Shown here piece by piece: positions 6,001 through 12,000 of a DNA stretch of 46,805 nucleotides; within the stretch, counting starts at the first letter, position 1, and the number at the start of each line of letters is the position of its first letter. Position numbers: made by a program. Origin of the DNA: a virus (taxonomy: Duplodnaviria; Heunggongvirae; Uroviricota; Caudoviricetes); the IMG/VR virus record IMGVR_UViG_2703718823_000005, one strand, 5' to 3'.

Positions 6001-9000
6001 TCTGACGCGGTAGTTGAAGCCCGCCACCCCACTAAGGTGGCAGTCAATACTAAAACGTCAGGAGTCATAATTATGGCTAATCAACTCATCCCCGTATTCA
6101 ACGGCACTATCGACAACGAAACAGCCCTACTCTGCAATGCCCGCGATCTGCATGCTTTTTTAGGCGTGAAAAAGGTGTTTGCGGCATGGATTACAAATCG
6201 CATTTCAGAATACGAATTCATTGAAAATCAAGACTATATTTTGCTTTCCAATTTGGGAAAGCAAACATCTGGTAGAGGCGGTCACAACCGCAAGGATTAC
6301 CACCTCACCCTCGACACAGCCAAAGAAACGGCGATGGTTGACGACTGCGTCCAATACTGACTATACTCCGCGCCGAGGCCTCGAAAACCTCCCAAAAGCG
6401 GATTAAACCAACCCCGTCAGTGTTGGATTTTTTATGCCTGTTATTCAGTGATAGCACAGTGTGCGGTCACATCCCCGATCAATGTCGGGAGGGCGACGAA
6501 TACAACACCCGCAAGGGGAATAAGTCCGCGGTATCTTTTGGGCCGTTTCGAGCCTCCCGGCACCACATTTTGTGGTGGCATTTCTCGAAAAAAGCCAAAG
6601 GAGGTCATCATGACCACTCAACTCATCCCTGTGTTTGAAGGTACAATCTCAAATGAACCTACGCTTCTGGTGAACGCGCGTGATTTGCATGGATTTTTAG
6701 AGGTAGGTAAAGATTTTTCTAACTGGATACGGGCCAAGCTAAACGAGTATGGATTCGTAGAAAATTTAGACTACATTCTATTTTCGCCAAATTTGGCGAA
6801 AACTCCAGGCCGCCGCCGCAAGGATTACCACCTCACCCTCGACACAGCCAAAGAGCTTGCGATGGTTGAACGTAACGAAAAAGGCCGCCAGATACGCCGA
6901 TACTTCATCGAGTGCGAAAAGAAACTTCGCAACATTCAGCCAGTACAAACTGAGCAGCAATTCACAGCAGAAGACATCATCCTGCTCTGCTACGTTCAAC
7001 TCTGGATGGAAAAAGCACAACAACTCAGTAAGCAGCTATACCCCGTCATGAGAGAACTGAATTCTGATTACTACGGGAAACTGTTTGATCTGGCCTACGA
7101 GACTCGTCATATAACCAACCGGACTCGCGACACATTGCTCCGCGAAGCAGCAAAACTTGATCCCGCCAACTATATGGTGCATAGGGCCAGAAGTATGCTA
7201 GCGCAACTAAGAGCAAGACAATTTGAATTCTGATACCAAAGGAGCTTCGGCTCCTTTTTTCATGCCTGAAGGAAAGGAAAATGGCAGATATCATCGACAA
7301 TGCCGCTGAAATCGAAGAATTGCAGCGCAATCTCTCCCTGCAAAAATACAAATCCGAAAGTAATGCCCCATCTGCTACTCATTGTTGCGAGTGTGGCGAT
7401 CCGATAGATGAGCGGCGACGCCAGGCTGTTCGCGGATGCCGAACTTGCGCCAGTTGCCAGCAGGATATTGAACTTATCAACAAACAGAGAGGTGTGAAGT
7501 GAGCATAGACACCACTATAACGATCGATACGGCCCTCAACACAGGTCTGGCGCTTCTTGGTTATTTTTACATTATGTTCTGCGCCGGGCGGTGGCTATCG
7601 CTGTTGTTACTGAAAAAATGGAATAAATGCCGTAAGCAGGATCAACGCCAGAAGGCAATGAATGCGTTTTCCGAAGCCTTCGGGATTGACAGCATGGAGC
7701 CAGGAGATCCAGCTCGCGTAATTAGCAGAGGTGACGTTGTAATTCTTGTATACCGGAGCGAAGAGAAAAATGAGCGAGATTAACTATCAGGTACTGCGTG
7801 AAAAGGCAGAAAAAGCAACGCGTGGTGAGTGGTCGCTCGAATATGGAGAGAACCGATTTGATGGTGATGATGCACTAATTCATCGCGAGGCTGCTGGATA
7901 TATTCCCATTTGCAGAATTGAAGGAGCACATCCTGAAAGCGGTTTCGATGAAGATTTCCAAATGGAACAGCAGGCCAATGCTGAATTCATCGCCGCAGCC
8001 AATCCGGCTACCGTGCTGGCACTGCTGGATGAACGGGAAAGAAACCAGCAATACATCAAACGCCGCGACCAGGAGAACGAGGATATTGCGCTTACGGTAG
8101 GGAAGCTGCGCGTTGAGCTTGAAACAGCAAAATCAAAACTCAACGAGCAGCGTGAATATTACGAGGGAGTAATCGCGGATGGAAGTAAGCGCATAGCAGA
8201 ACTGGAAAAACAATGCGCCGAATGGGAGCGAAAAGCATTAAGCAACTTTGAAGAGTGTGCTGCGATGGCTGAACGTATCGAAGAGATGCAGACAAAATCT
8301 GCACCAGATTCGTTTGGCATCATCGGTGAAAATATTCGAACACAGGACAATCGAATAAAGTCAGATCCCATGTTTTGTGTGTATCAAAAGCGCGAAATCG
8401 TTGTTGATGCTGATTATGACCATGACCGGATTGTCTGGGTTGACGAAGATGGCAATGAAGCCAATAAACGCCATAGTCGTCGTCTCGAGCTACTTCATGA
8501 AAACTTTCGAGAGCCACCAGAAAAATGGCGGCGCGTTGCTGTGAAAGATATTGATGAATTCGTTACCTGCTGTTTCACCGAACAGGGTTGTAAAGACTAC
8601 CTGGCAGTCAATGGTCACAATCTTCGCTTGCCATTTATATATGTAAAAAGCGGTTTCCGGAACGCTGAATATATCGGCATAAGAAACTGGCTTGCTGGCA
8701 TTCGCATCAAAGGAGAGTGATATGGCGTTAACACACCGCGAACTCTGTCAGATTGCGTACAAGTTCCTTAAGCGCAACGGGTTCAAGGTTTGTTTTCATG
8801 ACCGCTTTATAGCTGTAACCAGTACCGGAGAACAGCCAGATGCTATGGGATTCAGAAATTCAGCATCATGCCTGATAGAGGCGAAATGTTCTCGTGCTGA
8901 CTTGTTGGCAGATAGAAAAAAGCGTTTTCGTAAAAATCCGTCTCTTGGAATGGGCGACTGGCGATTCTTTATTAGTGAGCCGGGAATTATTTCAATTGAG

Positions 9001-12000
9001 GATTTACCACCTGGCTGGGGATTACTTCACGTTGTTAACGGAAGAGTACGGAAAGTACATGGATGGCCCAAGGGGAATTGCTGTTGGGGTAACCCTGAAG
9101 ATAAACCTTTTATTGGGAATAAGCAGGTTGAATGCGATTACATGTTATCTGCATTAAGGCGCATGGAGTTGAGAGGGCACCTTAATGAAATATATGACGG
9201 TGTAATTGTTAATAAGAAAGAAGGAAACGCGGCATGATCACTATTACCAAAGAGCGACTACTGACAATCAAGCAGTGGCGCGAAACATACGGACCTGGTA
9301 GCAACGTTGTACTGCCAGCAGAAGAAGCGGAAGAACTGGCACGAATTGCTCTGGCAGCGCTGGAAGCCGAGCCGATAGGTTTCCGTTGCAGGCGCAATGA
9401 TAACCTTGGTGATTGGAGTTACGTATATCATCGAGAGCCAGATGATTTTGAGCGCAAACATTTAGTGATAGAGGGCATTTACGCCGCCCCTCCAGCACCA
9501 GTAGTACCGGAAGAAAAACCAATGCCTAATCCTCTTAGCATGTACGCGGTTGATGCGGTTGCCGCTATTGCAGAGGTAAGAGGCTGGAATGCCTGCCGCG
9601 CCGCCATGCTTCAGTCCGGAAACTTTCGGGAAAACAAGAATTCGTCAACCAATAATTTTCGGGAAATCGCGGAAACGTCAACCAACTATCCGGTAATTCC
9701 TAGTGAGGTGTTGTCCGCAATCCAGAAGGTTGCCAAGATTCGTGCCGATTTCGATGATTTTGACGGTGACAGGCGAGGTATCGGTGATTGTCTGGATGAG
9801 GCTGAGCAAGAGCTTATCGTTACCATTAACAAATATGCCAGTCAGTTGGCAGCAGAACCGATAGCGACTAATGACGTTCGAGAGCAAACAGCCGTTCCGC
9901 CAGTTCCGGTAACTCCGGATGGTTGGATAAGCTGTAGTGATCGAATGCCAGAAATGGGAGAGCGACAATACTATGTGTTAGCAGCTGACTTTAAAAACAA
10001 CTACCCACCAAGCATCCCCAACACTCAGGTCGGCGTATATGGCGACTGGTTTAATGATGGCAATCCCACTTGGGATGACGGTGATGGCGAAGACCTGCAT
10101 CTCAAAGAAGTAACCCACTGGATGCCGCTACCAGAACCGCCGAAGGAGGTAAGCCAATGACCTAGCCTGAAGCATTTGCAATTGTAGTGGCTGCCATTTC
10201 GATCGCACTGATTGTTTTTGCGATTTGCCGCTGGGGGTAAAATAGTTCACCTGCATGGAGATTTGATGCCGGGGAATTGTGGGGGAGCATTCAAACCTCT
10301 CCCCTTCCCGGTTAAAGACTCCATTGCTTTGCGGTCAGAGAGATACATCAGCTTCATCAGCTTAATGAAACGCATAGATCCGCCATGCTTTTTCAGCAAA
10401 TACGCTGCCATTTGCGCAACTTTTTCTTCATTAAACATAAATCGGCTCTCTGTCTCACATGAAATACTCTTTCTGACTATATGTTAATAGCTCCGGTTAT
10501 TACAGGTTAATGTGTGTTTATTCCTTAATCAGCCCCGCACTTCCGTACGGGGCCATTTCTGTTAATCCACTCCCACTTTTTTGTTGTACTCGCGGTTAAA
10601 GCGATCCACGGCAACCTTCATATCCCGCTCTACCGATTTCACTATCGCCGCCTGCTGCGCCAGACTGAGAGAACTGTCGGCATAAATGGCATCACGCTGT
10701 TTACGCAAATCCTTCAGTCTCTTCCGGGTATCCTGCATAAGCCCGTTCATCGACAATTTTCCGTTGTTCTCGTCAATGAACGCCGTTCTTTCTGCACCGG
10801 TCAGACTCTTCAGCTCTGCGTGATACTGCGCAATCTCTGTCATCCGGTCGTACATCTTCTGCTGGTCTGCATACGGCATCACCTCCCCCGAAATTTTCCC
10901 CAGGAAGGGCACCTGCTGTTCCGGTATATCAATACCATTCAGCGATTTCACCGCCGCATCCGTGGTTTTGGAAATGAAGCGCCCTGTCCCTCCGGAGATA
11001 TAGTCAATCCAGAATTTCAGCGATTCCGGTGTGATATCCACCGCGCCGGGACGGTACTGGCTGCCACCTGAGAACGCATTCAGCCAGGATGCAAACGCCT
11101 TGTACGCTTCTGGCGTTGAACGTCTTCCCAGCTGGCTGTCAGGTTTTGGTGTACCAAACGGCATGTTCTCCTGGTAAATCTGCGCCCCCATGAAGTTTTC
11201 ATTCATGGCAAGGTTCGCAAACGGACGCAGAATGGTCGGCGCTGCATTTTTCAGCAATGCCCCGGACAGTGTTTCCGACGTTTCACTGCCCACAGGACTG
11301 AATGCCCCAAGCACACCACCAACAACATTACCGGCAGCACGTGAAGCGGTCAGGTCGCCCGCTGCCACCCCTTCGGCTGTGTGACCAAGCAGGAAGAAAA
11401 CGTTGTACCCGTAAGGCAGAGGAATACTCCAGTACTCTCCGGCCTTGCCCCCGAACACCGATTTCATAATGACGAGGTTACGCTCTTTCACATGAGACGG
11501 TACTTTGTCATACCAGTTAACCCCGTCATCATCCTCACCCGCCACGCTGCGGTTAAGCGAGCCAAGCAGATAACCCGCTCCCACAGCGGCAAGCGCGATT
11601 TTCTGCGGAACATTCAGATTCTTCCAGCGAAGGCGCTCCAGTAAAGGTCCCTCACCATTAAGATGTCCGAGCGTTCTCACCAGATTTGCCGTTCCCTGAA
11701 TACTGGCGTTGGCGAACATGTACAGCGAGTTCATCAGCGCCCCCTGCTCACCACGACGGTTAAAGTTCACCGTCATGTTTTTGGCAAGAGACGCCGCCTG
11801 CTGGCGTGACAAACCGGCATCACGGGCGTGTTTATAGGCAGAAAGACGCAGAGCGTTTTCAACCGCCCCGTTGGCATCCTCGACAAGGTTAAGGAACGAA
11901 TTCCATGCACCGATACTCTGGCCTTTCCATCCTCCCTTCGCCAGCGATACAAGGCGATCCATTTCCTTCTGCTGGCCTTCAAGGTCACCCATGTTAAACC

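Follow-up and report, generated by a model that had tools for sequence, protein, structure and literature searches.

The virus record IMGVR_UViG_2703718823_000005 of IMG/VR, a 46,805-nucleotide stretch assigned to the Caudoviricetes and called the window here, carries at the end of a Shiga toxin (Stx)-type prophage a small gene that almost certainly encodes a nuclease of the PD-(D/E)xK superfamily. On sequence grounds, this nuclease and its relatives are best described as an unannotated phage clade that is sister to the MmcB-like (DUF1052) proteins and lies outside Pfam family PF06319 as now defined. We are nearly certain of the fold and the ancestry of the nuclease. We also propose, with moderate confidence, that it is a metal-dependent endonuclease that acts on branched or damaged DNA in early phage replication, recombination or repair. 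The reality of the gene, its fold, its homology to MmcB, the conservation of its active site and its gene order are computational results.

An initial annotation of the window had suspected a PD-(D/E)xK nuclease because the product contains QPD followed about 13 residues later by IEAK. The spacing from D40 to E53 is indeed 13 residues, with the Q38-P39-D40 codons at 8833-8841 and those of I52-E53-A54-K55 at 8875-8886. By itself, however, the PD…ExK motif is weak, suggestive evidence, because among 20,000 shuffles of the protein the loose pattern D-x8-25-[DE]xK turns up in 57% and the strict pattern PD-x10-16-[DE]xK in 2.2%. That the motif is real follows from its conservation and the fold. Across 316 aligned homologs of nearly full length (37-100% identity), E37, D40, K67, G78 and R81 occur in every sequence, and E53, K55, D60 and R70 in 315 each; W99 (314), D64 (313) and H5 (306) follow. 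The residues originally singled out are therefore the most conserved of the family, and the objection raised beforehand, that they might vary among homologs, does not apply. We infer that K67, R70 and R81, which are basic and invariant, are candidates for contact with DNA phosphates.

An AlphaFold2 model built on 31 sequences (mean predicted local distance difference test score 85.1, predicted template modelling score 0.79) contains the α-β-β-β-α-β core of the superfamily. Its elements run in the order α(5-18), β(23-25), β(41-45), β(48-54), α(58-64) and β(80-85), after which come a β-hairpin and the C-terminal helices. D40 stands directly before strand β2 (41-45) and E53-x-K55 closes strand β3 (48-54), so that the layout, as modelled, is canonical for PD-(D/E)xK enzymes. 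A Foldseek search of the model against the PDB returned nothing significant (best E 0.03). Against predicted viral structures it returned 13 matches at E ≤ 1e-3, of which two are named “DNA repair protein MmcB-like protein” and “MmcB family DNA repair protein”; more MmcB-like or DNA repair names appear at E 1.1e-3 to 1.5e-3, and over the viral structure library as a whole the MmcB-named phage proteins range from about E 3e-7 to 1.5e-3. The restriction-endonuclease-like fold, for which a Foldseek comparison had been suggested, is thus borne out by the canonical layout and the viral matches, and what had been put forward as a possible PD-(D/E)xK nuclease is now supported by a conserved site, a predicted fold and homology to MmcB.

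DUF1052 (PF06319, COG5321, structure 3DNX) is listed as a PD-(D/E)XK family in the catalogue of Steczkiewicz et al., which describes PF06319 as mostly alphaproteobacterial (PMC3424549). PF06319 is now called MmcB-like, and 3DNX is SPO1766 of Ruegeria pomeroyi. MmcB has been described as an SOS-regulated PD-(D/E)XK endonuclease that protects against mitomycin C, with a proposed role in the repair of cross-links (PMC9578287). When the nuclease family was compared by hhalign with four genuine MmcB proteins taken from plasmid records, the match had a probability of 96.6% (E 5.6e-10, 107 columns), and in the joint alignment D40, E53, K55, S57, D60, D64, G100 and L101 are invariant. A search of PDB sequences with the single nuclease sequence gave noise only; the family profile found 3dnx at E 2.3e-4 with D, ExK and S-R-x-D-F-x-x-D aligned, and the overall structure, as modelled, is like that of 3DNX.

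The nuclease itself does not match PF06319 (gathering threshold 22 bits) even at E up to 1. Thirteen of 43 relatives match it weakly (best E 2.9e-4), and the two genuine MmcB proteins that were scanned score 265 bits (Sinorhizobium) and 60 bits (Bacillus). The clade further differs from MmcB and PF06319 in its own invariant residues E37, K67, R70, G78, R81 and W99, and in a longer C-terminal part. It is because of these residues and the lack of a model match that we describe a sister clade and not members of PF06319. The two also differ in where they occur: PF06319 is mostly alphaproteobacterial, whereas the clade is found on phages and prophages, mainly of Gammaproteobacteria. MmcB of Caulobacter crescentus is SOS-regulated. 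In PHROGs the nuclease falls into families of “unknown function”, with one weak match to a family described as DNA repair.

“MmcB-like DNA repair protein” is already the label of some phage proteins, those of Dickeya phage JA13 and Acidovorax phage ACP17 among them, which match the nuclease structurally at E 7e-6 to 1.5e-3 in the viral library. One annotator calls the homolog of Vibrio phage PVA73, which is 53% identical to the window nuclease, an “endonuclease”. Both kinds of label are automatic or annotators' guesses. The homologs of Kuttervirus and of Dickeya Ackermannviridae have kept the catalytic residues, as has the nuclease. Type II and IIS restriction endonucleases and the CRISPR-associated Can2/Card1 carry domains for DNA recognition or ligand sensing, partner methylases or CARF domains; unlike them, the nuclease is a bare core with a short C-terminal helix bundle.

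The clade is large and widely dispersed. At the DNA level the gene was found in 137 phage records. It is 100% identical, in DNA as well as protein, to gp71 of Shigella phage 75/02 Stx, and shares about 98% identity with gp06 of Stx2 phage 1717 and with Upf89.0 of phage P7. The other listed records, with DNA identities of 97.5-99.8%, include Stx1- and Stx2-converting phages, P7 (Upf89.0) and P1-like phage-plasmids. Among 5,426 complete Escherichia coli genomes, 931 (17%) carry the gene, at 1,300 places of which 250 are on plasmids. An exhaustive HMMER search retrieved representatives of 3,298 clusters (50% identity) at E ≤ 1e-3, of which 2,447 also pass E ≤ 1e-10, protein homologs extend to many genera down to 33% identity, and tblastn found relatives in 643 phage records, virulent phages included. 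The gene is annotated as “hypothetical protein” throughout or mislabelled, for instance as “minor tail protein” (the RefSeq name of P7 Upf89.0) or “EaA”, and word-indexed searches gave no precomputed Pfam domain on the nuclease part and no informative name among the matches listed.

The Ea22-like, nuclease and Upf89.5 genes are about 98-99% identical in DNA between lambdoid Stx phages and P1/P7 phage-plasmids (L003 4313-6811), which implies recent exchange between unrelated types of phage. Alleles shortened to 110-144 residues are plentiful in E. coli and Klebsiella (P0065, P0040, P0014, P0082), a 111-residue one (P0065) having 645 member sequences, which suggests frequent decay or mosaic recombination inside the gene. 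Natural fusions also occur. Three proteins of 240-252 residues from Salmonella enterica prophages (P0089, P0092, P0100) join a conserved N-terminal Ead/Ea22 motif through a short repeat linker to the nuclease domain, which stands where the variable C-terminal part of an Ea22-like protein would be. In a 428-residue protein (P0136, locus L096 6001-7287) the nuclease domain is fused to a TniB-like ATPase domain, which scores 27 bits and thereby exceeds the Pfam cut-off; this pairing resembles that of TnsA and TnsC in Tn7-type transposons, and the genes around it are uninformative.

Homologs in virulent phages lie beside or near a primase gene, whereas the window nuclease belongs to a lambdoid accessory cassette. 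In Vibrio Mardecavirus PVA73 the gene stands between two helicase genes and a primase gene, whose start it overlaps, and in Kuttervirus (Ackermannviridae) two genes ahead of the primase. In phage X29 of Vibrio cholerae it comes after a DUF551 gene, in a neighbourhood of exonuclease, DUF1064, RusA-like, Dam and SSB genes. Prophages of Microbulbifer and Thioalbus, together with one assembly contig, have it in replication or nin-like regions. A survey of genes within three positions of the homolog in 36 dereplicated IMG/VR loci found, among others, DNA methylases, RdgC, SNF2 and DnaB helicases, NinB, NinG, YbcO, SSB, integrases and Q. The common denominator of these contexts is the early DNA replication and recombination region. 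Ea22 is a neighbour in 3 of the 36 loci and DUF551 in 2, and the idea of an obligate Ea22-nuclease-DUF551 complex or toxin-antitoxin system was dropped on these counts.

Along the plus strand, the prophage end in the window has two antirepressor-like genes and then a translationally coupled accessory cassette of TraR/DksA-like, DUF4752, Ea22-like, nuclease and DUF551 genes, after which comes a convergent gene for a 2806-residue LPD5 protein. In 75/02 Stx, whose record is circular, the genes int, exo, bet and gam share the strand of the cassette and begin a short way beyond the record's origin. Once the phage has excised, the cassette thus comes directly after int, on the strand of leftward early (pL) transcription. 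This placement resembles that of the b-region ea genes of lambda. In the integrated prophage the cassette is separated from pL. Between exo and int, Stx2 phage 1717 shows this order for its TraR-like, Ea22-like, nuclease and DUF551 genes; a small extra open reading frame (ORF) separates nuclease and DUF551, and the nuclease belongs to the pL operon after gam-bet-exo. In P7 the Ea22-like, nuclease and Upf89.5 genes are consecutive in an operon behind a C1 operator.

We favour a role in DNA metabolism because the PD-(D/E)xK site is complete and strictly conserved in a stand-alone, basic protein (19.4 kDa, isoelectric point 9.3) with no sequence-reading, recognition or sensor domain, because homologs in temperate and virulent phages alike lie in replication and recombination neighbourhoods, and because of the kinship with MmcB. 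That the protein has real catalytic activity seems to us very probable; that it serves replication, recombination or repair, and is not a weapon or a regulator, we think slightly the better guess. Hypothetically, D40 and E53, probably together with the clade-specific invariant E37, would hold one or two Mg2+ ions, K55 would position the attacking water, and the DNA backbone would be gripped by K67, R70 and R81 from the helix and strand that come next. What directs the cutting would most likely be a DNA structure or lesion, such as a fork, a flap, a branch or a cross-link, and not the sequence. The cassette would be expressed early after induction or infection, and would be cut off from pL while the prophage is integrated.

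Several points weigh against this proposal. The nuclease matches no Pfam, NCBIfam or PADLOC model. No fixed partner gene was found in the 36 dereplicated viral loci, and neighbours vary so widely that inference of function from gene context is loose. Early, repressor-controlled expression of the cassette is something we infer from gene order only, and a promoter and terminator scan of 5500-10700 gave background levels. The common truncated alleles in E. coli suggest that the gene is dispensable in prophages. For the class of substrate we have guessed by analogy, and a literature search gave no biochemistry on the clade or on MmcB in vitro, and no experimental paper on phage MmcB-like proteins.

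More specifically, the clade could be a dedicated replication-fork or DNA-damage nuclease tied to SOS induction and the phage replisome, which we consider rather unlikely. Temperate Stx phages would express such an enzyme from pL as soon as SOS induction sets in, to cut cross-linked or stalled phage DNA; in the virulent Ackermannviridae and Mardecavirus its partners would be the neighbouring helicase and primase. Mitomycin C is the classic inducer of Stx phages and also the agent against which MmcB protects.

One alternative, an accessory weapon cutting host, plasmid or competing-phage DNA for exclusion, defence or takeover, would suit a mobile moron cassette that is mosaic, lies beside the attachment site, has a G+C content of 44% (window, 51%) and, with DNA identities of 98-99%, moves between Stx phages of the lambdoid type and the P1/P7 phage-plasmids. 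DNA methylases are, in addition, the commonest named neighbours in the viral loci (C5 three times, N6_N4, MT-A70, Dam). Yet neither the nuclease nor its two neighbours match PADLOC-DB 2.0 at E up to 1, the protein, at 171 residues, has no specificity, sensor or regulatory domain, and in the prophage the gene is disconnected from the early promoter. The homologs on the helicase/primase side in virulent Mardecavirus and Kuttervirus also fit DNA metabolism better than lysogen exclusion, and we regard a weapon as fairly improbable. It is likewise unlikely that the protein is a canonical Hjc-type Holliday-junction resolvase that resolves Exo/Bet recombination intermediates. Carriers already have RusA or NinG, and the reference phage 75/02 Stx has RusA and NinB as well as Exo/Bet/Gam. 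Archaeal Hjc (PF01870) does share the same minimal PD-(D/E)xK core and a similar size, and a weak profile match (E about 1) aligns D40, E53 and K55 with D42, E55 and K57, which we take to be the catalytic residues of Hjc. However, the nuclease stays below the PF01870 gathering threshold and has no close structural match to Hjc, and the weak Hjc matches in Pfam for 23 of the 43 relatives reflect the common core.

Two further readings would deny the protein its activity or the gene its existence. A nuclease scaffold that has become a catalytically silent DNA-binding or regulatory protein, for instance for XisH-like control of excision, would suit the position near int and attP; but strict conservation of the catalytic residues over 316 homologs is unexpected after a loss of catalysis, and virulent phages without any integration system carry homologs too, which leaves this reading with very little probability. 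A chance ORF bearing a chance motif is compatible with the 57% of shuffles that yield the loose D…(D/E)xK pattern. It is refuted by the homologs from the HMMER search, which number in the thousands, and by the residue-specific conservation in 316 of them, and the confident fold, the ribosome-binding site and the coupled start and stop also speak against it; we give it practically no credence.

The superfamily and the nearest family are both known, some annotators already use “MmcB-like”, and this is not a new kind of system. A clade with no curated Pfam or NCBIfam model, “hypothetical” in RefSeq, nevertheless now has a testable assignment, and one that concerns about one sixth of complete E. 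coli genomes, most Stx-converting phages, the P1/P7 phage-plasmids and several virulent genera. It adds a nuclease to the exo-xis (b) region, a poorly understood part of Shiga-toxin phages with genes that affect induction, and one for which the literature makes no mention of a nuclease. E. coli and lambdoid genetics offer an easy route to what MmcB-type nucleases cut. If the clade did prove to be a fork or damage nuclease, it would represent a new, widespread phage activity in DNA repair or fork processing, and would give a first biochemical handle on the MmcB superfamily.

The nuclease ORF runs from ATG at 8722 to TGA at 9235-9237 and comprises 171 codons and a stop, so the 172 residues first reported were a small miscount; the AGGAG ribosome-binding site of its own and the 4-nt ATGA overlap with the next gene are present as described (Table 1). 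A longer start, TTG at 8692, is available, and we chose the ATG because the N-termini of homologs read M-x-L-T-H. The flanking genes had been called Ea22-like and DUF551-like, and Pfam agrees in both cases (Ead_Ea22, 5.9e-37; DUF551, 1.2e-19). The raw Ea22-like ORF starts with TTG at 7746 and its stop (8718-8720) lies 1 nt before the ATG of the nuclease.

Table 1. Positions of the nuclease gene, its parts and its immediate neighbours in the window.
Feature	Coordinates	Strand	Basis or remark
CDS (coding sequence), 171-aa MmcB-related PD-(D/E)xK protein	8722..9237	+	ORF read and homologs
Ribosome-binding site AGGAG	8711..8715	+	6 nt 5' of ATG; read directly from the sequence
Predicted catalytic core	8830..8886	+	E37 8830-8832, P39-D40 8836-8841, E53 8878-8880, K55 8884-8886
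Conserved segment S57-R58-x-D60-F/L-x-x-D64…K67…R70…G76-x-G78-D79-x-R81	8890..8967	+	Helix α2 to strand β4
ATGA stop/start overlap of nuclease and DUF551 genes	9234..9237	+	Translational coupling
Ead/Ea22-like gene, same cassette, upstream	7770..8720	+	ATG as annotated in 75/02 Stx
308-aa gene with C-terminal DUF551 domain, downstream	9234..10160	+	Last gene of the cassette

The DUF551 gene encodes 308 residues here and 167 in 75/02 Stx (L001 3615-4118), a phage that is nearly identical otherwise. Since the nuclease is 100% identical in the two and the DUF551 gene differs, a mosaic breakpoint lies right after the nuclease. The cassette is headed by a gene for a 73-residue C4 zinc-finger protein of the TraR/DksA family (7281-7502; TIGR02419, 7.6e-15), and host RNA polymerase is reported to be a direct target of TraR homologs, lambda Orf73 among them (PMC9239242). 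One exact copy of CTGT-N8-ACAG, the core of a LexA box, is found at 8570-8585, 137 nt before the nuclease start. We do not take it as evidence of SOS control: it lies inside the Ea22-like CDS, has a GC-rich spacer and is probably not functional. Matches with at most one mismatch number 32 in the window, about twice the 15.9 expected from shuffles.

The first part of the window, from 1 to about 5635, is host DNA. It includes an intact ynfF (3117-5543) and the beginning of ynfG, which starts at 5556 and is cut by the Stx-type prophage at about 5635, after some 27 codons; resemblance to phages POCJ13 and 75/02 Stx sets in at 5632-5639. A short way into the prophage, a 40-nt element (5710-5749) contains two copies of ATGCAAAGCTTTGT and is able to fold into a stem of 17 bp with a T-rich tail behind it. 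A sib-like terminator is one possible role, an arm site for integrase or IHF another. At the left edge of the window (345-3059) ynfE appears to be interrupted, as its C-terminal 346 residues alone are encoded (1893-3059). Immediately upstream of this remnant, on the opposite strand, a 540-residue ORF (345-1967) matches tyrosine recombinases over its C-terminal half, which is suggestive of a second integrated element at this edge.

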